64,000 nt of DNA from contig JAHPZH010000002.1 in the NCBI GenBank assembly GCA_019058315.1, forward strand, positions 320,001 to 384,000. The letters are read 5' to 3'. Positions 21,485-31,721 of the stretch are shown here, piece by piece. The stretch is from Candidatus Helarchaeota archaeon. Its GTDB lineage: Archaea; Asgardarchaeota; Lokiarchaeia; Helarchaeales; RDOG01. The position numbers and the translations under genes were made by a program. Under the pieces are notes generated by a model. It was not told the DNA's origin and did not search any database. It saw only the letters and a program-made list of their open reading frames with translations. The first letter of the stretch is position 1; each line of letters starts with the position of its first letter.

Positions 21485-22294
21485 TTATAAATTAATTATA
21501 TCAGGGGAGAGTCCAGTTCTAAAAAAAATTATTTTTTCATAAATTCTCTGAAACCAATTTATAGGTCTCCCTTCTAATAAATGAGCAAGAAAAGATTGAG
21601 GAGGATCTTTAGGTTTTGCTCCACCAACAAAATCTGCACCAGCTTTAAAAAATGGATCTGGAAACATAGTACAAGAAGGACCAATAATACCTCGCAATTT
21701 TGCATTTTTACAAGTATCTAACAACTCTTCTGTTGAATGATATAATAGACTAGCCCCAGTTGCAATAAGAATATCCGCTTCTGCCAGATCCTTAATTGAC
21801 TCCGCTATTGTTATCCTTTTATCATAGTCATCTTTTAAATTCTTTTCTAATACAATAACTTTTCCTGCATTTTCAACCCAATATTTTATATATGGTGTAA
21901 TATATCCGACTTGCGCTACAATATCCTTATCTTTTGGCTTAATTATCGCCATTGGGTCGTATTCTTCTCCAAAATAAATTTGTTTATTTTTCCAGAAATC
22001 AGTTTTATCAAACCACCACAATGAATACGCGTTGATTAGAGCTATCCCTAAAGAACGTTCTGCGTTTAGTGCCATGTTTGCTGCTTTTATTGCATTTAAT
22101 ATTTCGTTTTTATTATGTGGGACTTTAATATCACCTTCCATTTCTGGATCTATAAAACAAGCTCCACTATTTCCAGTTTCTAGTAAAACTGTAACAAAAT
22201 GACCGGTTTTTCCTACCGCAACAACATTTGGTGGTTCATTTTCCTTAAAAATCTTCGATATTAAATTAATTTCATTTTTTAAAATTTCAGACAT
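21485..22294 (-). CDS. DUF364-type Rossmann-like (putative metal/pterin-binding) protein
   Basis: ERSLGIALINA, VAQVGY, ADILIATGASL, IIGPS, GADFVGG. Confidence 0.8.
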   Translation of the reverse strand: MSEILKNEINLISKIFKENEPPNVVAVGKTGHFVTVLLETGNSGACFIDPEMEGDIKVPHNKNEILNAIKAANMALNAERSLGIALINAYSLWWFDKTDFWKNKQIYFGEEYDPMAIIKPKDKDIVAQVGYITPYIKYWVENAGKVIVLEKNLKDDYDKRITIAESIKDLAEADILIATGASLLYHSTEELLDTCKNAKLRGIIGPSCTMFPDPFFKAGADFVGGAKPKDPPQSFLAHLLEGRPINWFQRIYEKIIFFRTGLSPDIINL

Positions 22295-22309
22295 AAATAA
22301 AACTCCATT

Positions 22310-23191
22310 TCAAATTATTTTTATAAAAAATATTTCTAATTGACAACTTCCATTAAGTTTAAAAAGCCAATAATCAAAGATTGAAATACCATAGCCCCAA
22401 AAATTATAATCTCGTATATATGGGCAACACATCACGAAAAACACGGAAATACTAAATAATATAGTTAAAATTAGAACCAGCACATCTAAAATAGAGATTG
22501 AGATTTCATGAAAATAGGTTCTTTCGCCTTTAATACGAAATCCTCTTGCTTGAAGGGCCATCGCCATATTATTAGTATTTAAGATGAAATTAAATAATAT
22601 AGTAGTTAATAAAACTTTCAAATTTGATAATCTGGTTCTGATACCACCATGTGTAATACTAATTCCCTTTGCCTCCATAGCCATTTGAATTTCATCACTT
22701 TCCATTAGAATCAGTGGTAAAAAATAAAGCGCAAGACTAACCATAAAAGAAATTACATACGGAATTTTCATTTTTGTTAATGCTAAAAGAAAATCCTTAC
22801 GATTAGTAGTCATAGCAAATATAGAACCTGCAAAAATGAGAATCATAAATCTAAAACTAATCAAAAGACCATAAAAAATACCATCCCAACTTAGAAGTAT
22901 CCAACCTCCAAAAATCGGGATATTTTGGGGTATTATGTAAATCGGGAAAAGAGGATTATAATATAATATAGTTTGAAAAAAAATAATTGGAATAATCATT
23001 GAAATAAGCTTTCTTAAATACATAAATGGGCTGAATTTTTTGGATTTTAAAAAGATGAAAAAAAGAAATTCAGAAATAAAAATTACAAATAAGATAATAA
23101 GATTCTGTACTAAAACAGAAATTGTCGAAACACAAAGTAAAATAATGAACTTAACTCGTGGATCCGTACTTTTTTCTGAATTAGTTTGCAT
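22310..23191 (-). CDS. ecfT: ECF transporter T component
   Basis: DPRVK, TM segments, AMEAKG and ALQARGF. Confidence 0.92.
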   Translation of the reverse strand: MQTNSEKSTDPRVKFIILLCVSTISVLVQNLIILFVIFISEFLFFIFLKSKKFSPFMYLRKLISMIIPIIFFQTILYYNPLFPIYIIPQNIPIFGGWILLSWDGIFYGLLISFRFMILIFAGSIFAMTTNRKDFLLALTKMKIPYVISFMVSLALYFLPLILMESDEIQMAMEAKGISITHGGIRTRLSNLKVLLTTILFNFILNTNNMAMALQARGFRIKGERTYFHEISISILDVLVLILTILFSISVFFVMCCPYIRDYNFWGYGISIFDYWLFKLNGSCQLEIFFIKII

Positions 23192-24005
23192 TTTTGAGTT
23201 TTTCCTCTAAATAATCAATTAAATTTTCATAATTAGTTAAAGATGGAAAATTTTTGAATTTTTTAAGTTGGTCAAATAATTTTAGCATGAATGGTAATCT
23301 CAAACCCACTTCAAGAAGTCTCTTAGGATCTTCTCTCAATTTAGTTATAGAATCATCAAAAATTTTTCTTCCTTTATCTAATATTATTATTCTATTACAA
23401 AAATTAAGAATTGAGTCAATATCATGTGAGATCAAAATTAAAATGTGGTCTTTTTTTAATTTGATTAGAAATGATAATAAATTTTCTTTTCTATTGTAAT
23501 CTAAACCAGCAAATGGTTCATCTAATATTATGACCTTTGGTCTGCTAGCTAAAATAAAACCTAAATTTACTCTTTTTTTTTCTCCTTGGCTTAATCTTCT
23601 TGGATGAAACTTTTGAATTGTATATAACCCTAAAAATCTTAAAATATTCTTTGTAATTCGTTCAAGGTTTTCTAAAGACACTTTTTTTCGTTTTAAACCA
23701 ATAGAAACCTCATCATAAATACTACTAGTGCAAAGCATTACATCTGGGTTCTGAAATAAATAACCAACTTGTTCAGAAATATTAAAAATGGATAATTTTT
23801 TATAATCTATTTCATTTAATAGCATTTTACCGGAATTAGGTTTGATAAATCCTGCAATTATTTTTGCTAAAGTTGACTTTCCTGCTCCATTTGGACCAAT
23901 TAACCCAATAACTTCATTTTTTTCAATATCTAAATTTAAATCCTGAATTGCGGGAATTTTACCACGATATTTAAAATTAATATTTTCAATTTTTATTATC
24001 GACAT
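23181..24005 (-). CDS. ecfA: ECF transporter ATPase
   Basis: GPNGAGKST, FQNPD, LSQGE, LDEP, SHD. Confidence 0.92.
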   Translation of the reverse strand: MSIIKIENINFKYRGKIPAIQDLNLDIEKNEVIGLIGPNGAGKSTLAKIIAGFIKPNSGKMLLNEIDYKKLSIFNISEQVGYLFQNPDVMLCTSSIYDEVSIGLKRKKVSLENLERITKNILRFLGLYTIQKFHPRRLSQGEKKRVNLGFILASRPKVIILDEPFAGLDYNRKENLLSFLIKLKKDHILILISHDIDSILNFCNRIIILDKGRKIFDDSITKLREDPKRLLEVGLRLPFMLKLFDQLKKFKNFPSLTNYENLIDYLEEKLKNAN

Positions 24006-24847
24006 ATAATATCACTTAAAATACTGATTCCATCAGAAAATTTTACTGGAATCTCAAAATCAAAATCAATTCTTTTCTTCAAATCTAAAAATAATTTCGT
24101 TATAGGTGGAGGGATTAATTTATATTTATTTAAAAATTCAATATTTGAAAAAATCATATTTGGTTTATCGTTACCGATGATTTGTCCTTTATCTAAAACG
24201 ATGATACGTTCTGCTAATTCGCCTAAAATTTCTGCATTATGTGAGACTAAAATTATTGTAGTTCCTGATTGATGAATTTTTTTTAAGATATTGAAAATCC
24301 GGTTTGAATAAATAGGATCAAGATATGAAGTAGGTTCATCTAAAACTAATATTTGTGGTTTCATTATTAATATGGAAGCTAAAGATACTAATTGTTTTTG
24401 CCCACCTGATAGTGCTGTAGTATCTCTATTAATTAATTCAGTAATGCCAATTTCTTCTAGAATTATATTTAACCTTGTAGACATTTCTTTTTTAGGAATA
24501 GCTAAATTTTCCAACCCAAAAACAATCTCACTTTCTACATCAGGAGAAAAGATTTGGAAGTCTGGATTTTGAAAGAGAAATCCTACTTTGTCTGCAAAAT
24601 CTTGAATTTCATAATCAAGTGTATTATTACTAAGAACTTCTACTGATCCCTCGAAATCTCCTTTAAAAAAATGAGGAACTAATCCATTTAATAAATATAT
24701 TAATGTAGATTTTCCAGAACCAGATTCTCCCATAACTCCAATAAATTCCCCTTCATTAATTTCAAGATTAATATTTACTAAATTCAAAATTGGTGATGTT
24801 GCATATCTAAAATTGACATTTTTTAATTTTATTATTTTATATACCAT
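23996..24847 (-). CDS. ecfA: ECF transporter ATPase
   Basis: GESGSGKST, FQNPD, LSGGQ, LDEPT. Confidence 0.92.
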   Translation of the reverse strand: MVYKIIKLKNVNFRYATSPILNLVNINLEINEGEFIGVMGESGSGKSTLIYLLNGLVPHFFKGDFEGSVEVLSNNTLDYEIQDFADKVGFLFQNPDFQIFSPDVESEIVFGLENLAIPKKEMSTRLNIILEEIGITELINRDTTALSGGQKQLVSLASILIMKPQILVLDEPTSYLDPIYSNRIFNILKKIHQSGTTIILVSHNAEILGELAERIIVLDKGQIIGNDKPNMIFSNIEFLNKYKLIPPPITKLFLDLKKRIDFDFEIPVKFSDGISILSDIICR

Positions 24848-24867
24848 GGTAATCGAAAAAAACTGTT

Positions 24868-25452
24868 TTATATATTAATTTCAACACTAATTACATACTT
24901 TGCACAAAGTCTGCCGTTATAATCATCTCCAAATTTAAATATACAATATGCTTGACTTGTAATAGTCCGAACTGGTCCTTCTCCACCTAACTCTTTTTTT
25001 AATATTGGCAGACCATCTTCTAAATAGACTAATAGAATTTCTTCGTTCCAAGTATCAATATCAGCTTTTGGATAACTTATTGCCCAACCATCTTGTGCTT
25101 TTATTGAAACTTCAGAATATGTTGACACGTTCATTATATCATAGACTAAATGTTTCAAAGAAAAGCCCTTATAAGCATGTGTCGATTCACCTGTACTTGT
25201 CTTATAAACAAAGGCTTTTGTTACATTCGAATGACGATCGAATTCTTGAATTGTAAAAGTTCTAGAACTATTAACTGCAGATCCTCCAATTTTAACCGTC
25301 CATAAAAAAGGTAATAATAATAAATTACGTTGTGTGCTCTGGGTTTGATTTTTTTGATATTGATAATAATAAAAATAATAGATTAATGAAGGAACCAAAA
25401 TTAAAATTAGAACAATATTAATTATTAAAAAAATTTTTACATCTCTCTTCAA
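24868..25452 (-). CDS. Membrane-anchored molybdopterin-oxidoreductase-like domain protein (paralogue 3)
   Basis: N-terminal TM; WTVKIGG…YKGFSL…AQDGW…LLVY…DG…GP.R…KYVISVE. Confidence 0.72.
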   Translation of the reverse strand: MKRDVKIFLIINIVLILILVPSLIYYFYYYQYQKNQTQSTQRNLLLLPFLWTVKIGGSAVNSSRTFTIQEFDRHSNVTKAFVYKTSTGESTHAYKGFSLKHLVYDIMNVSTYSEVSIKAQDGWAISYPKADIDTWNEEILLVYLEDGLPILKKELGGEGPVRTITSQAYCIFKFGDDYNGRLCAKYVISVEINI

Positions 25453-25477
25453 TTCTATCTTGCCTTTATCGTTTAAT

Positions 25478-26095
25478 TTAAGAATTTATTTGAAAAGCTA
25501 TAACATGCCTTACACACCATATGCCATTAAATTGACCCAAATTCCCATATTTTGTAATAGTATAATTCTGGGTAACAACATTATATACGGGTTTATAATA
25601 ATCAGTTAAATTTTGCCCCTCTCTTTTATATGCTAAGAAAAGATCATCCCAAAATACTGGATTATCAATGTCAGTTTGTTGAAAAGTCATAGAATATCCA
25701 TCAGAGGCTATGATATTTACGCTAGAATATGAACTTACATTCATTATATCATAAATTAAACGTCTAAATGGAATTCCCGTATAATTGACAATATCACTAA
25801 CTAAAACACTTCCCTCTTTTCGTGTTATATTAACATATCTAGTTAAATTTGACCATGTAACAAAATCTGAGTAATTCAATTTTAGAATATCTACTGCAGA
25901 TCCATTTACTGTTAAAGGGAAATCTGGTATATTCTCATAAGTACCTGAATTTTGCTTCAAAGTTATAAGTAATAATTCATATGGTTGATTATTTGGATTT
26001 ACTAATATGTACCCAATTGGTATAACTATTCCAATTCCTATTATTATTGAAATTATTGATATTTTAATTGAATTTTTCAATTTTCTTCTTCTCAT
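25478..26095 (-). CDS. Membrane-anchored molybdopterin-oxidoreductase-like domain protein (paralogue 2)
   Basis: N-terminal TM; LTVNGSAV…YTGIPF…ASDGY…LAYKREG…VRHV. Confidence 0.72.
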   Translation of the reverse strand: MRRRKLKNSIKISIISIIIGIGIVIPIGYILVNPNNQPYELLLITLKQNSGTYENIPDFPLTVNGSAVDILKLNYSDFVTWSNLTRYVNITRKEGSVLVSDIVNYTGIPFRRLIYDIMNVSSYSSVNIIASDGYSMTFQQTDIDNPVFWDDLFLAYKREGQNLTDYYKPVYNVVTQNYTITKYGNLGQFNGIWCVRHVIAFQINS

Positions 26096-26125
26096 TAATT
26101 AAAAAAATTTAAAAAAAATAAAAAA

Positions 26126-26734
26126 TTAAGTTATTTCAATAGTTTCTACCAGTCTTACAGTGTTAAAACCATTAAAGTTAGTACCAAAAACTGCAAGGCT
26201 GAATTCCTTAGTAAACACTGATCTTACAATTTCTTGACTTGTTAGATAATGACCATCCCTTTTATATGCTAACATAATATCATCTGCAAAGGTGGCATTA
26301 TCGATATCTGTTTGATTATATGTCTTAGCCCAAATGGGATTGTCTGATGGAATTAATGTAATGTTTGTATAAGAAGTTACATTAGCAATATCGTAGATCA
26401 AGTGAGTAAAAGGAATTCCAACCCAAAATTCTGTATAATTCAGCAGATCTGCAGCTCCACCCCACCTTTTTTCCATGACAACAATATATCTAGCAAGATA
26501 TGAGTGTTGTTCGAAATCTTCTAAAGTCAAATTAAACTCAACCGGAACTGCTGAACCATTAACTTTAATATTAATTAACGGTGGTGAAGGTGTTTCTTGC
26601 ATCATTGCAAGAGCAATGACAATTGGTCCAGTATCAACTCGACTTTGTATATTCAGAAAATAAAAAGTTGGAACTATTATTCCTGTTGCAACAACAAAAC
26701 CCAAGATAAAACTTATTCCAATATTCTTATCCAT
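26126..26734 (-). CDS. Membrane-anchored molybdopterin-oxidoreductase-like domain protein (paralogue 1)
   Basis: N-terminal TM; IKVNGSAV…WVGIPF…PSD…LAYKRDG…VRLVETIE. Confidence 0.72.
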   Translation of the reverse strand: MDKNIGISFILGFVVATGIIVPTFYFLNIQSRVDTGPIVIALAMMQETPSPPLINIKVNGSAVPVEFNLTLEDFEQHSYLARYIVVMEKRWGGAADLLNYTEFWVGIPFTHLIYDIANVTSYTNITLIPSDNPIWAKTYNQTDIDNATFADDIMLAYKRDGHYLTSQEIVRSVFTKEFSLAVFGTNFNGFNTVRLVETIEIT

Positions 26735-26747
26735 TCATTTTCACCTC

Positions 26748-27365
26748 CTATTCCAATATTTCGTAATATTTATCTGTTTTAGCACAAACAGGGCATAACT
26801 TCTTCCCATCTATCTCCTCAACTGCGTAATCTAATATACTTTCGCCACAATTTTCACATAAAAATTCATTATGCTTAATTGATGCATTTTCAATTAATGA
26901 ATTATCCGTAATTTTTACCTTTTTAACAATACAAATCTCCTGCATCTTCATATCTAAAATTTCTTTTCCAAAATTTTTAGTTATTTCCAAAATCTTTTTT
27001 CTATCATTTATTTCAAATAATTCTCTGATTTTATTGGATATTTCAGTCATTCTTTCTTGAAAATTCGATTTTACTGTAACCCTAACTGCATTTCCTGTTT
27101 TTTTATCTAGCATTGTTAGAGCTAATTTACCATAATTCTTTATTATTAAATCTCCACAGCCATATGTAGCTTTTGAGACTACTTGAATACCGTCCATAAA
27201 ACAATGTCTTGTTTCTGATATAACAAATAAATCCTTAATTTTTGGATTTTTAATACCAAGTTTATCTAATGCTGCTAAAGTTAATTTAATTCCAAGAGCA
27301 TAAGGAGCACTTATTACTCCATCATGAAAATATCTTGCAAATTCTAACATTTTGTTCTCGTTCAT
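26748..27365 (-). CDS. FmdE-family protein with C-terminal zinc finger
   Basis: YFHD…ALG…ETRHCFMDGIQVVSKATYG…YGKLALT…CENCGE…CPVC. Confidence 0.88.
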   Translation of the reverse strand: MNENKMLEFARYFHDGVISAPYALGIKLTLAALDKLGIKNPKIKDLFVISETRHCFMDGIQVVSKATYGCGDLIIKNYGKLALTMLDKKTGNAVRVTVKSNFQERMTEISNKIRELFEINDRKKILEITKNFGKEILDMKMQEICIVKKVKITDNSLIENASIKHNEFLCENCGESILDYAVEEIDGKKLCPVCAKTDKYYEILE

Positions 27366-27383
27366 AGCGATAACTCGCGAACT

Positions 27384-28103
27384 TTATAATAGATTTTCTT
27401 TAATTTCTTCCTCACTATCTAGATGTAAGTCATACCATTTATCATCTTTATCTAATGTTAATATTTGAACTTGGGATAGTTTATCATATTCAATAACTAT
27501 TCCTCGAGCGATTAACCCTCCTAAACCTCCTGATATAAATGCAATAATAATAACAATTATTAAAAGAATCATTGGAAGATCTAAAATAACAATATTTACT
27601 AAATAAGTGCCAACAACATTTGCCGCTGCCCCCTCAAAATAGTAGCCAATGTAATTTCCTTCGCCTAATTTATGCATAATAAATGCAACTATATCAACTG
27701 CTATTCCTGGGGCTGAATATGTTAGGAATGAAAAAATTCCATGAGATCCGAATGGCATCAATAAAATCATAAATGTTTGAATAACTGCTGCGATAGTTGC
27801 TGCTCCATTTTTTTTAGTTAATTCCCTTGCTAATATTAACCACATCATATATAATCCACCTGCAACCGAACCTCCTGGTATATTTACAGGTCGTAATATA
27901 AAGGATAAAGCAGGTAGAATTAATTGTTTTGAGCCTATTCCCAAAGCTGCCATTAGAGGGATAATGATAAAATCTTTAATTTCAAATTTTGATTTCTTTT
28001 TCTTTATTTTTTTATCAATTTTTTCTTCATTATTTCCATTTTGTTCATTAATTCTGTCTTTTTCATTAATTTGGCTCTTTTCATTAATTCGACTTTCTTC
28101 CAA
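27384..28103 (-). CDS. ECF transporter substrate-specific S component
   Basis: About 6 TM, AALG, PGGSVAGGLYMMW, ISGGLGG; first gene of the ECF operon. Confidence 0.82.
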   Translation of the reverse strand: MEESRINEKSQINEKDRINEQNGNNEEKIDKKIKKKKSKFEIKDFIIIPLMAALGIGSKQLILPALSFILRPVNIPGGSVAGGLYMMWLILARELTKKNGAATIAAVIQTFMILLMPFGSHGIFSFLTYSAPGIAVDIVAFIMHKLGEGNYIGYYFEGAAANVVGTYLVNIVILDLPMILLIIVIIIAFISGGLGGLIARGIVIEYDKLSQVQILTLDKDDKWYDLHLDSEEEIKENLL

Positions 28104-28140
28104 TTTTTATCAAATCCAAAAATGAATGCGAATAAGATTT

Positions 28141-28178
28141 TTTAAACCGATATGAATAATTATACATATCAGTTTAAA
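28141..28178. promoter_or_regulatory. 38-bp near-perfect palindrome containing a ModE-box-like core
   Basis: TTTAAACCGATATGAATAATTATACATATCAGTTTAAA, with two mismatched pairs, between the divergent ECF operon and mobB. Confidence 0.7.
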
Positions 28179-28231
28179 TTCTTTACTCTAAATGTAAAAA
28201 TTAAAAATATGATAAGGTGAAATGATCTATC

Positions 28232-28972
28232 ATGTTAACGAAATATTTTTCAATTGTAGGTTATTCAGATTCTGGAAAAACTTTTGTAATTGAGAAAATA
28301 ATTAAACATCTAGTTAAAAAAGGATATAAAGTAGGAGTATGTAAATATATCCATCATTCAGGATTTGGCATTGATATTCCAGACAAGGATACAACAAAAT
28401 TTTATGAAAATGGAGCTAAAATCATTTCATATGTTTCTCCAGATGCAAATGGTATAATAAATATTGAAAAAGAAGGCACAAGTTCAACTTTAAGAAATAT
28501 TGAGAATAAAGTTGATTATTTAATCCTAGAAGGATTTAGAAATTTAACTGGAGTGCCTAGAATGGCAATTATTAAGGAGGAATCAGACCTAAAAAGCCTT
28601 TTAGACGAATTTACTATAGGAATAACCAGTCATCTAATAGATCTATCCAAACATAATTTATTTATCAAGGATGAGAATATCCCATCTTTTGTTGAGAAAA
28701 GAGCTCTTCCACCTATGACTTCATTAAATTGTCAAAAATGTGGCTATGATTCATGCAAGGCATTCTACAAAGCTTTACTAATGGAAAAAGAAGATAGATC
28801 TAAATGTGTTCTTCAAATTAGAAATATAAAATTATTTGTTAATAAAAAATTACTCCTAATTAACCCATTTGTAGAAGATGTGTTTAGAAATGTAATATCG
28901 GGTATTGTTGAGACCTTACAAAGACCAGATGAAAAAATTAATTCAATTGATATCAATATTAAAATTGAATAA
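28232..28972 (+). CDS. mobB: Molybdopterin-guanine dinucleotide biosynthesis protein B with Fe-S domain
   Basis: GYSDSGKT, KYIHH, DT, ILEGF, LNCQKCGYDSC…C, NPFV. Confidence 0.88.
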   Translation: MLTKYFSIVGYSDSGKTFVIEKIIKHLVKKGYKVGVCKYIHHSGFGIDIPDKDTTKFYENGAKIISYVSPDANGIINIEKEGTSSTLRNIENKVDYLILEGFRNLTGVPRMAIIKEESDLKSLLDEFTIGITSHLIDLSKHNLFIKDENIPSFVEKRALPPMTSLNCQKCGYDSCKAFYKALLMEKEDRSKCVLQIRNIKLFVNKKLLLINPFVEDVFRNVISGIVETLQRPDEKINSIDINIKIE

Positions 28973-29051: not shown

Positions 29052-30182
29052 ATGCCCAAAGGAATTTTTATATTTAGTAATGGTGCTCAAGATATTACAA
29101 AAGTTGAAGCTAAATATCCCGAAGATTTAATAATATCAGATAAAATTCTTAATATAATAAAATTATCTCATGAAATTAAAGAAGGTTATAGTTTTTCAAC
29201 CATAATTATTGGTAAATCTAAATTTGCATCTCTTTATACAGGTCCGGAATTTAATCATTTTATTAATTTATATTTGACCGATGAGGATGATTCTGTAATT
29301 TTTGAAAATGCACTCTCATATTATAGTAATAAAATAATGAAGAACATCTCAACTGATAAATTTGAAGAAGTTCTTCCAGGAATTTACGAAGAAATTTCAT
29401 TATATCCAACTTTTGATGAAGAACAAAAATTAGCAATTGCTTATAATAATGAAATTAAACGTTTAATTATGCAAAAATTAATTGTAAATGCATTTATTTC
29501 AAAAAAAGATTTATTAGATTGGTTAAAAGAAGAATTACAAATAAAAGGGCTCAATATAGATCCTATTCTTGATTCCTTAATGAAACTTGATTTAGTAAAA
29601 AAATCGGGTATTAAAGACATATCAGATGAATATGTATTTTGTACAGGGGATTTTTTTATAACCCGTTTACCACCGTCAGAAATAGTTGAATTAGTTGATA
29701 AAAAAAAGATACCTGAATCAATAGCTTCGGAATTTTTTTCTAAAGTAAAGGATTTTTTTCAAAATTATTCACCTACATCAGAAGATGCAGAAATAATAGC
29801 AGAAATAATTAGTGATTTAGATTGTTACAATACTTTAAAATTATTAAGATTATCTCCAGCAACTAAGAAAGGGTTTTCAAGTGTAGGAAATAAAATAAAA
29901 GATTTGGATTTAACTCTACAGAAATTTCAATCAAACAAAATTTCAGATATAATAAAGGATGAAAAGGGTCGTGAATATCATTTCTTAATAACTGATATTC
30001 GTATAAAAAAATTCTTTCCAGAATATTTACTGAAAATAATATTAAAAAGTTATAATGAGAAATCTGTTCCTAATTCCGTTGTATTGGATAATTTGGAACT
30101 TTTAATAAATACATATGATGATGAAATGGAACGTATTAAAGAAGAAGAGAAAAGGAAAGAAATGGAAGGAGAAAATGAATAA
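29052..30182 (+). CDS. Asgard-type conserved protein with N-terminal longin/uDENN-like domain
   Basis: MPKGIFIF…AKYPE…SH…ASLYTGPE…FPEYL resembles a recurrent Lokiarchaeia family (recognised from memory). Confidence 0.55.
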   Translation: MPKGIFIFSNGAQDITKVEAKYPEDLIISDKILNIIKLSHEIKEGYSFSTIIIGKSKFASLYTGPEFNHFINLYLTDEDDSVIFENALSYYSNKIMKNISTDKFEEVLPGIYEEISLYPTFDEEQKLAIAYNNEIKRLIMQKLIVNAFISKKDLLDWLKEELQIKGLNIDPILDSLMKLDLVKKSGIKDISDEYVFCTGDFFITRLPPSEIVELVDKKKIPESIASEFFSKVKDFFQNYSPTSEDAEIIAEIISDLDCYNTLKLLRLSPATKKGFSSVGNKIKDLDLTLQKFQSNKISDIIKDEKGREYHFLITDIRIKKFFPEYLLKIILKSYNEKSVPNSVVLDNLELLINTYDDEMERIKEEEKRKEMEGENE

Positions 30183-31266
30183 TGAGAGGACGTTTAAATT
30201 GAGAAGAAAAACCAAAATATTATTCATCGCAAATCTTTTAATCATTTTTATGATTTTTTCAATTCAAAACTCATCTAATACTTGCACTTTGGAGAATTTT
30301 CAGAAGCAATATGCTTATAATGGTATAGATAAGTCAAAAGAAGTAAAATTAATCTATAATGCTGATAATGCGACTCTTATAAACGGAAGTTTAGTCAGTC
30401 TTTATGAGATCGATTTATATAGATTTGAAAGCTGCAATATCACTTTCAATTATACTGATGCAATAAATAATAAGACCATTGATGGTGCAGATGCAAATTT
30501 TACGTGGTATAAAAAAAATGATCCATCTGTTATATACAATGGGACTTTAATAAATAGTAGCAGTGGGATTTACATTCTAGATTTTAATACTTCATCAAGA
30601 GAAATTGGAGATTATATTATTGATGTTTATATTAAAATTACTAATTATACAAAACCGACTTTAATTGTTAAATTGTCGATCAACCGTAGATCCACTAAGT
30701 TATTAACTCTAACAGGTACAACCCTTAAAATCGAAAGAGGGACCATATTCCCTATTCTATTTTTCTTAGAGGATTCTATAAATGGAACAAATTTGGAGGA
30801 TTTTCCTCTTAAATGGATTATGGGCTATTTTTCAGGTGAATTGATTTCTTTAAAAGATGGGTTATATATGTTTCCTATTCCTACTTCATTATTTGAAATA
30901 GGCTCTAATATTTTTATTTTAGACTCATCATCCGTCAATGACTATAATATAGAAAGTTCAACTGTAATACTTGATATAACATGGGAAAAAATATTGGGAA
31001 TAGATGCTCCAATATTTTACGCAATTTTAATTATATCTATAATAGTTTGTGTTTGTATTTTGTTATATATTTTTATAAAAAGATTATCTAAGCCAAAAGC
31101 TATTAGAAAAATTCATGATAGCATTAAAAAGATTGAAAAAGATATAAGACCAATATCCATTACTGAAATAAGGAGTCGTGAGGAGATCTATAACAGTTTA
31201 TTCAAAAAAGACTGGGAAAAAATTAATAAACACCCCAAAATTACTCCTAAAAAACCAGTTGATTAA
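30175..31266 (+). CDS. Cell-surface glycoprotein with Ig-like beta domains and C-terminal TM
   Basis: Signal-like N-terminus, many N-x-S/T sequons, TM near the C-terminus; likely start ATG 30175. Confidence 0.7.
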   Translation: MNNERTFKLRRKTKILFIANLLIIFMIFSIQNSSNTCTLENFQKQYAYNGIDKSKEVKLIYNADNATLINGSLVSLYEIDLYRFESCNITFNYTDAINNKTIDGADANFTWYKKNDPSVIYNGTLINSSSGIYILDFNTSSREIGDYIIDVYIKITNYTKPTLIVKLSINRRSTKLLTLTGTTLKIERGTIFPILFFLEDSINGTNLEDFPLKWIMGYFSGELISLKDGLYMFPIPTSLFEIGSNIFILDSSSVNDYNIESSTVILDITWEKILGIDAPIFYAILIISIIVCVCILLYIFIKRLSKPKAIRKIHDSIKKIEKDIRPISITEIRSREEIYNSLFKKDWEKINKHPKITPKKPVD

Positions 31267-31313
31267 AGATATTAAATATTAAAAAAAAATTACTTAATTT
31301 ATTGTGATTATAA

Positions 31314-31721
31314 TTGTCAAAATGGTACGAGGAAGAAGCAATAAAAGAATGGATTGAAATTGCAATAAAACTTCACAGAAATTTTATCAATATCGGACTT
31401 GCACTTGGTATTAGGGCTTCCGTTGTTGGGATGAAAGCGTTAGGGGTCGATAGGAGTAAAATTGAGAAGGCAGAAGTGTGGGGAGTAAAGTGTTTTGGTG
31501 AAGCTGTTGAAGTAATGACTGGTTGTAAACTAATTAGGGAAAAATTAGTTTTTCATGAAATATATGAACCACCACTTAAACCAAAATTAATTTTATGGAC
31601 AATTAATAATAAAGCTATATTAGAATTACTAGCAAGAGAATTTAAGAACGAAGATGAAGTTTTTAACGCTCCTGAAGAAGAAGTTTTTGAAAATGTGACA
31701 ATATCAAATATAAATTTGTAA
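31314..31721 (+). CDS. Short FmdE-like protein
   Basis: LH…GLALGIRA…KCFGEAVEVMTGC. Confidence 0.72.
   Translation: MSKWYEEEAIKEWIEIAIKLHRNFINIGLALGIRASVVGMKALGVDRSKIEKAEVWGVKCFGEAVEVMTGCKLIREKLVFHEIYEPPLKPKLILWTINNKAILELLAREFKNEDEVFNAPEEEVFENVTISNINL

Follow-up and report, generated by a model that had tools for sequence, protein, structure and literature searches.

Here we describe an operon encoding a predicted energy-coupling factor (ECF) importer in a 64,000-nucleotide stretch of DNA from Candidatus Helarchaeota archaeon (contig JAHPZH010000002.1, positions 320,001 to 384,000; hereafter the window). It comes from a 5.8-Mb Asgard genome, to which a metagenome-assembled genome (MAG) labelled Promethearchaeota is close. 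No RNA data set was listed among the sequencing runs that contain this DNA, and the one run that covers it fully is a sediment metagenome, which may have been the source of the assembly. Nine minus-strand genes follow one another head to tail from 28103 to 21485, with intergenic gaps of 13-30 nt and two overlaps of 10-11 nt, and a mobB gene diverges from them. This content and order, together with the divergent mobB, had been proposed in an initial annotation made from the sequence alone, and all nine genes and mobB were recovered where it placed them, with concordant Pfam and NCBIfam assignments. The features of the locus are listed below, starting with the first gene of the operon.

27384..28103, minus strand: ECF S component, 239 aa (match to PF09819 at 30.7 bits, cut-off 25.2, E 3.8e-7)
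26748..27365, minus strand: FmdE-family protein, cytoplasmic, 205 aa (PF02663, E 8.8e-26)
26126..26734, minus strand: paralogue A (ParA), 202 aa, N-terminal transmembrane anchor and PruR-like, Cys-free ectodomain of the sulfite oxidase (SUOX) fold
25478..26095, minus strand: paralogue B (ParB), 205 aa, transmembrane anchor and PruR-like SUOX-fold ectodomain (AlphaFold2 (AF2) model and Foldseek)
24868..25452, minus strand: paralogue C (ParC), 194 aa, transmembrane anchor and PruR-like SUOX-fold ectodomain, the most conserved of the three
23996..24847, minus strand: EcfA ATPase, 283 aa (PF00005, E 1.1e-27; TIGR04520 ECF_ATPase_1, E 2.5e-69)
23181..24005, minus strand: EcfA' ATPase, 274 aa, overlapping ecfA by 10 nt (PF00005, E 1.5e-29; TIGR04520, E 6.2e-58)
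22310..23191, minus strand: EcfT coupling component, transmembrane, 293 aa, overlapping ecfA' by 11 nt (PF02361 CbiQ, E 8.6e-26)
21485..22294, minus strand: DUF364/DUF4213 protein, cytoplasmic, 269 aa, last gene of the operon (PF04016, E 3.6e-22)
28232..28972, plus strand: MobB-like P-loop NTPase fused to a Cys4 'FeS' domain, 246 aa, divergent (PF03205, E 3.5e-21; PF04060, E 1e-7)
28104..28231, no strand assigned: divergent promoter region, in which 28141-28178 form a near-perfect palindrome of 38 bp and a candidate operator

A complete group I ECF gene set (PF00005 twice with ECF_ATPase matches, PF02361, and PF09819) is thus contained within one tight operon, in which Pfam identified neither an SBP_bac_11 or PBP_like_2 protein nor a BPD_transp permease. 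The S component carries a Lys/Glu-rich N-terminal tail and the motif IPGG(S/A)xAGGxYMxW. Its 95 homologues all belong to PF09819 and keep the motif columns nearly invariant. A phmmer search of the PDB with the single S component sequence returned no match, YkoE included, and the profile of the family reached YkoE (5edl) at an E-value of 5.6e-6 over its C-terminal two thirds, which places the S component in a distant YkoE-like clade within PF09819. FmdE ends in a Cys4 zinc ribbon (CxxC...CxxC; Cys170, 173, 191, and 194; zf-dskA_traR, E 3.3e-4). Group I ECF transporters normally have no extracytoplasmic binding protein, and the operon departs from this norm in that it includes three genes for SUOX-fold ectodomains, which would act in substrate binding.

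The same gene order, including the divergent mobB, was found in a second MAG (locus L023), whose S component, FmdE (89%), MobB, EcfA, and paralogue C match their counterparts in the window at 86-93% identity. Among the paralogues (24868-26734 in the window, 3100-5014 in L023) identity was 87% for C, 61% for B, and 49% for A; relaxed or diversifying selection may act on the outer paralogues. The dyad of the palindrome (a GAT.TG-N10-CA.ATC core plus flanking arms) is retained at the same place in L023 with its letters partly changed, and the palindrome is a candidate operator for some regulator. No Rfam family was detected anywhere in the window and hence no riboswitch at the archaeal operon, as expected for an archaeon.

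The three paralogues are 32-39% identical to one another. Each has one N-terminal transmembrane helix and 4-8 N-x-S/T sequons, whereas the operon's cytoplasmic proteins contain 0-1, and the paralogues are probably glycosylated archaeal surface proteins. Searches of Pfam and NCBIfam with the three proteins alone gave nothing significant. Matches to the NCBIfam 'GEGP diheme' entry (E ~1e-4, far below the cut-off) were dismissed, as they reflect a G-x-G-P segment common to SUOX-like domains. A word-seeded homologue search with paralogue B retrieved 5 proteins and an exhaustive profile search 145, many of them multi-repeat surface proteins. The Cys-less SUOX-like domain also occurs as 3-12 tandem repeats in very large metagenome proteins (P0009-P0030; up to 2625 aa).

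A profile built from 20 family members matched SorA (E 1.2e-11) and PruR (7kom, E 1.7e-11) in the PDB. Several homologues pass the Pfam family PF00174 on their own (E 7e-13, 2e-11), and the L023 orthologue of paralogue A has a precomputed match to it. The AF2 model of paralogue B obtained from 20 sequences had a predicted local distance difference test (pLDDT) score of 84.6, with the ectodomain mostly above 90. Foldseek, the search proposed in the initial annotation for these proteins, ranked PruR, a pterin binder, first (7kom, E 3e-7, TM-score 0.73 by target; 0.62-0.73 by target across the PruR structures), followed by SorA, sulfite oxidase, SoxC, nitrate reductase, and YedY (SUOX enzymes at E 6e-6 to 1e-4). 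A first model from 7 sequences (pLDDT 66) had produced the same top matches in the same order. The resemblance to the sulfite-oxidase/MsrP domain noticed at the outset therefore holds in profile and in predicted structure alike.

The absence of a Cys at the Mo-ligand position, which had also been pointed out, was borne out by the alignment. The Mo-ligand Cys hairpin of SorA appears as an 18-residue insertion relative to the paralogue family (HMMER alignment), and none of the 20 aligned family members has a Cys in this region. Cys is lacking altogether in ParA and lies only near the C-terminus in ParB and ParC. In PruR (Agrobacterium Atu3496; PDB 7kos/7kou, 7kom, 7kp2, 7rkb), which is also a small, non-catalytic, extracytoplasmic, and degenerate SUOX fold, the hairpin is truncated and without Cys, the pterin ring is held between Tyr104 and Trp160, and Asn102 hydrogen-bonds (PMC11194511). 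The truncated hairpin is shared with the paralogue family, and in the family motif SDG(Y/W) the conserved Y/W falls in the alignment column of Tyr104, the residue that stacks on the pterin. However, identity to PruR is only 14-16%, Asn102 aligns with a nearly invariant Asp, W, C, A, or T is found where PruR has its C-terminal Trp, and there is no PW motif. PruR is released after cleavage of a Sec signal, whereas the paralogues are held by an N-terminal transmembrane helix or fused to a transporter. The partner of PruR is a DcpA-type cyclic dimeric GMP enzyme and its ligand monapterin; that of the paralogues is an ECF S component, and the proposed ligand is of the molybdopterin type. The paralogues are Cys-less degenerate SUOX folds, nearest to the PruR periplasmic pterin-binding proteins.

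Extracytoplasmic molybdoenzymes that are loaded with cofactor need export by the twin-arginine translocation (Tat) pathway. ParA, ParC, and the homologues lack a conserved twin-arginine motif, and only ParB has an RRR run, at its start (MRRRK), so the three proteins are probably exported without cofactor. The domain itself is homologous to the molybdenum cofactor (Moco)-binding domain of SUOX enzymes (SorA 2ca3/2blf, chicken sulfite oxidase 1sox, YedY/MsrP 1xdq). In contrast to these enzymes, the paralogues are single domains of ~150 residues without the Mo-ligand Cys, a dimerisation or haem domain, or a conserved Tat signal. That they are nevertheless active extracytoplasmic molybdoenzymes (MsrP/YedY-like) or PruR-like signalling proteins, encoded beside an unrelated ECF transporter, is suggested by the SUOX-family homology and by the start of ParB, which is faintly twin-arginine-like. 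We consider such a role very improbable given the deleted hairpin and the lack of a conserved twin-arginine motif. In addition, there is no partner haem or membrane subunit in the operon and no DcpA-type (GGDEF/EAL) gene in or near it, and SUOX domains have repeatedly become fused to the S component.

The fusions, which recur in many Asgard lineages, were found both in a single protein and across genomes. P0238 (385 aa) consists of an S component, one extra transmembrane helix, and a C-terminal SUOX-like domain, and its gene (locus L045) is preceded by a MobB fusion and followed by EcfA, EcfA', and EcfT. Among 400 Asgard genomes, the S component and SUOX profiles match the same frames of 350-390 aa in families f16, f19, and f31 (e.g., G095:C23, G104:C8, G072:C5, and G336:C51), and one such frame matches PF09819 at E 1.9e-21 in its N-terminal half. 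Where the two are unfused, their genes are adjacent. Repeated covalent fusion of this kind argues that the S component and the SUOX domain belong to one machine. Joint structure prediction for paralogue B and residues 40-225 of the S component scored 0.00 and was counted neither way.

The distribution of the S component across the 400 genomes was compared with that of molybdopterin biosynthesis. Aldehyde:ferredoxin oxidoreductase (AOR) was present in 394 genomes, as against 177 with MoaC and 170 with the S component. The S component without MoaC was found in 150 genomes, MoaC without the S component in 157-164, both in 13-20, and neither in 73, a near-exclusion with a Fisher p of 1e-31 to 1e-37 in statistics that ignore kinship. 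Counted per genus (both/S component only/MoaC only/neither), the figures were 1/10/38/5 in g25, 0/20/10/12 in g26, 0/15/9/4 in g78, 0/6/10/1 in g79, 0/13/2/0 in g54, and 0/17/2/3 in g49. The either/or pattern thus recurs inside genera, which therefore points to many independent switches. MoeA was absent from all 11 of the S component-positive, MoaC-negative genomes tested, and MoaA and MoaE from all eight that were searched for them. The 11 include four closed genomes (G134, G137, G142, and G067), and several are 99-100% complete. AOR genes numbered 5, 5, and 12 in the three of these genomes that were counted fully, and the other eight had four matches each among four candidates scored. These genomes encode tungsto- or molybdo-pterin enzymes without the means to make or metallate molybdopterin, so the cofactor must be obtained, and the transporter genes appear exactly there.

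The surroundings of the module vary between lineages. In MAGs labelled Heimdallarchaeota the order is SUOX-EcfT-MobB/FeS-SUOX-S on one strand, with mobB inside the module, and in loci of this type the single SUOX-like gene beside the S component has its best tblastn match in paralogue C. MobB accompanies the module in three independent arrangements. In Lokiarchaeia the order is (~320-340 aa)-SUOX(-SUOX)-S-EcfAA'-EcfT. The first of these genes, directly 5' of the SUOX-like gene, encodes a conserved protein of 316-340 aa without a Pfam family and with 27-41% identity between genomes (L038:8738-9688, L056:6188-6979, and L142:11052-12074); it is absent from the operon of the window. In two closed Lokiarchaeia genomes, EcfA, EcfA', and EcfT form one polypeptide of 867-869 aa that lies 3' of SUOX-SUOX-S (L145:7584-10187, in CP104013.1, and L147:6726-9335). 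The neighbourhood survey of the S-component family that the initial annotation had called for also brought up moa/moe, MobB, DUF364, and AOR genes. In G168 the module SUOX-S-EcfAA'-EcfT is flanked by DUF364 and AOR, and DUF364 adjoins the module in G167 too. In G174 and G276 the ECF genes run directly into MoaC-MoaA-MoaE-MoeA-MoeA; a cluster of the same composition has a SUOX-like gene next to it in G216. Where moa genes exist, the module often lies within a moaC-moaA-moaE-moeA cluster.

Relatives of the S component were also found in 409 species genomes, mostly of anaerobic Clostridia. We examined 41 bacterial loci in which the S component is 35-46% identical to that of the window, and in 25 of them the riboswitch RF01055 for Moco or the tungsten cofactor (Wco) lies upstream, on the same strand and within 3 kb (52-88 bits). 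These loci share the S-component family with the archaeal operon. The archaeal version lacks the riboswitch and a small kinase, and it adds FmdE and DUF364, glycosylation-rich ectodomains anchored in the membrane, and an either/or relation to the Moco pathway that extends across the phylum. The kinase, which is APH/RIO-like (ThiK-like), lies beside bacterial modules and one archaeal module (L046:10848-11561, L047:7170-7892, and L038:6473-7315), has no counterpart in the window, and might trap or re-phosphorylate an imported pterin.

Could the system be a thiamine or hydroxymethylpyrimidine (HMP) importer, a functional orthologue of YkoEDC whose neighbouring genes are unrelated to its substrate? 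Its family is PF09819, some homologues are named 'ABC-type thiamin/hydroxymethylpyrimidine transport system permease', and the ThiK-like kinase adjoins the bacterial homologues. Nevertheless, similarity to YkoE is as distant as described above, with a match by profile and none by single sequence, and the riboswitch 5' of the bacterial homologues is of the Moco type and not of the thiamine pyrophosphate (TPP) type. ThiC served as a control and tracked phylogeny rather than the S component. It was present in 89 of the 96 genomes of family f6 (35 S component-positive and 54 S component-negative) and in none of the 86 genomes of f31, whatever their S component status. Moreover, 37 of the genomes with the S component and without MoaC have ThiC and so make their own HMP. 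Thiamine precursors had been named in the initial annotation as a competing substrate, and with the outcome of this control we judge them extremely improbable. Compared with YkoEDC itself, the group I ECF transporter of Bacillus subtilis for HMP/thiamine (YkoE, PDB 5edl), the architecture is the same, namely an S component of PF09819, two ATPases, and a T component. Homology is nonetheless remote, the IPGG(S/A)xAGG motif does not align to YkoE, YkoEDC has no extracytoplasmic partner, and the genomic links here are to Moco and not to thiamine. The system is a full member of neither the PruR nor the YkoEDC kind.

The genomic context could also be explained by import of tungstate or molybdate, with the ectodomains or the S component binding the oxyanion and DUF364, FmdE, and MobB handling the metal inside. 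DUF364 genes characteristically neighbour molybdate/tungstate ATP-binding cassette (ABC) transporters, modABC or wtpABC (PMC2954201; bioRxiv 10.1101/2024.03.05.583561), and the Moco riboswitch governs molybdate and tungstate transporters as well (PMC2408646). Likewise, the module stands beside moeA and moa genes in G174 and G276, and no ModA/WtpA-type binding protein was found in G087 or G082. However, a metal importer would be useless without molybdopterin, and yet the S component occurs almost only where MoaC is missing, with MoeA absent from 11 of 11. The S component belongs to a vitamin-type (YkoE-like) clade and not to the CbiM/NikM metal type, the deletion has removed precisely the Cys hairpin, with which the SUOX fold touches the metal, and the genome of the window already has two PF13531 ModA/WtpA-like proteins. 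On this balance, metal uptake appears unlikely. ModABC, WtpABC, and TupABC share the Mo/W context of DUF364, moa/moe genes, and the Moco riboswitch (PMC2954201, PMC2408646), but they are type I ABC transporters with an oxyanion receptor of the periplasmic-binding-protein fold. Here, a vitamin-type S component is combined with pterin-fold ectodomains, in a module found mainly where no molybdopterin can be made.

Another pterin or heterocycle was considered as well, such as a folate or methanopterin precursor, a monapterin-like pterin, or an unidentified vitamin, with only an indirect link to Moco. The pterins that PruR binds are small and are not Moco, which as a whole is said not to fit the short, truncated cleft of PruR (PMC11194511); the same deletion is seen here, and PF09819 is otherwise known for HMP/thiamine. 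On the other hand, the complementarity is specific to MoaC, and the tested MoaC-negative carriers are all without MoeA. The module is embedded in moa clusters and co-occurs with MobB, AOR, FmdE, and DUF364, and its bacterial homologues are under a Moco-specific riboswitch. We regard a ligand of this kind as quite unlikely.

Taken as a whole, the sequence evidence makes it likely, in our view, that the system is a dedicated group I ECF importer that salvages a molybdopterin-type cofactor. What it takes up from outside the cell is most probably the finished Mo/W-molybdopterin cofactor, or else molybdopterin without metal. The ectodomains would capture the molybdopterin-type pterin outside and pass it to the S component, which would topple and release it inside on ATP hydrolysis by EcfAA', via EcfT. 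MobB-FeS, FmdE, and DUF364 would then receive, protect, or metallate the cofactor or insert it into apo-enzymes, for example the 15 AOR-family proteins. This scheme agrees with the initial proposal, in which non-catalytic surface proteins would feed an ECF module that supplies Mo/W-pterin enzymes, and it draws support from fold, fusion, context, complementarity, and riboswitch. The absence of MoeA from MoaC-less carriers implies that the imported species should already carry metal or that an accessory protein replaces MoeA. Cyclic pyranopterin monophosphate (cPMP) is excluded as the sole substrate in these carriers because MoaE is missing in the eight checked. Since the cleft is shortened as in PruR, the ectodomain may hold only the pterin ring, and we therefore name a class of substrate and not one species. 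The genome of the window encodes MoaA, MoaC, MoaE, and two MoeA alongside its 15 AOR genes, and with this full de novo pathway the importer would here supplement synthesis, whereas the organisms of ~150 other Asgard genomes would depend on it alone for the cofactor.

Several points weigh against this interpretation. The same full pathway leaves the need for salvage in the genome of the window not evident. The PruR-like hairpin deletion may mean that the ectodomains hold the pterin ring only, or a smaller pterin. Moco is highly labile towards oxygen, and we know of no documented free extracellular pools of it. DUF364, the Moco riboswitch, and the moa-operon context also accompany molybdate/tungstate transporters and so do not separate metal from cofactor uptake. 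The contingency tests are uncorrected for phylogeny. Finally, neither marker was found in 73 genomes, of which 29 are from family f13, where a SUOX-linked ABC system of another kind is encoded, and others are incomplete MAGs.

The textbook view is that cells must make the Mo/W-pterin cofactor themselves, since it is too labile to share. Searches of the literature available to us found no description of an ECF or other prokaryotic importer of Moco or molybdopterin, in agreement with the initial annotation, which knew of no characterised ECF importer of metal-pterin cofactors. If cofactor import is confirmed, no earlier prokaryotic system will have been dedicated to taking up the Mo/W cofactor, and this one would give ECF transporters a new substrate class and a new architecture with an extracytoplasmic binding domain. 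It would also explain the 'orphan molybdoprotein' organisms, which have neither the pathway nor Mo transporters and have been left unexplained (Peng et al., PMC6147048). We consider evenly balanced the broader proposition that ~40% of the sampled Asgard archaea (150 of 400) are molybdopterin auxotrophs, whose W/Mo enzymes run on the cofactor of their neighbours via a new type of ECF importer. Candidate auxotrophs include two closed Lokiarchaeia genomes, one of which is CP104013.1, which we take to be the cultured Lokiarchaeum ossiferum. Supply by partners has been predicted in Asgard archaea for B12, biotin, lipoate, and TPP, a list that does not include Moco (Imachi et al., PMC7015854). Moco/Wco would join these partner-derived cofactors as a further dependency on syntrophic partners, with a bearing on Asgard cultivation and on syntrophy models of eukaryogenesis.

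Two further observations concern genes outside the operon. In family f13 (G033, L049:7722-12716; also L057 and L058), the gene for a 337-aa protein with an N-terminal SUOX-like domain has as neighbours those for a solute-binding protein and for two ABC half-transporters of the exporter fold (ABC_membrane + ABC_tran). Genomes of f13 have AOR and lack both MoaC and the S component, and this SUOX-linked ABC system may serve the same need via a different transporter. In the window, the genes downstream of mobB were recorded for their proximity to it.

29052..31721, plus strand: three genes 3' of mobB, encoding proteins of 376, 383, and 135 aa

They are a possible second arm of the same system. The 376-aa protein is cytoplasmic, belongs to no family, and also follows mobB in L023, with 75% identity. 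The 383-aa protein is a glycosylation-rich surface protein with 12 sequons and two transmembrane helices, and the 135-aa protein is a second, short FmdE-like protein (PF02663, E 3e-5).

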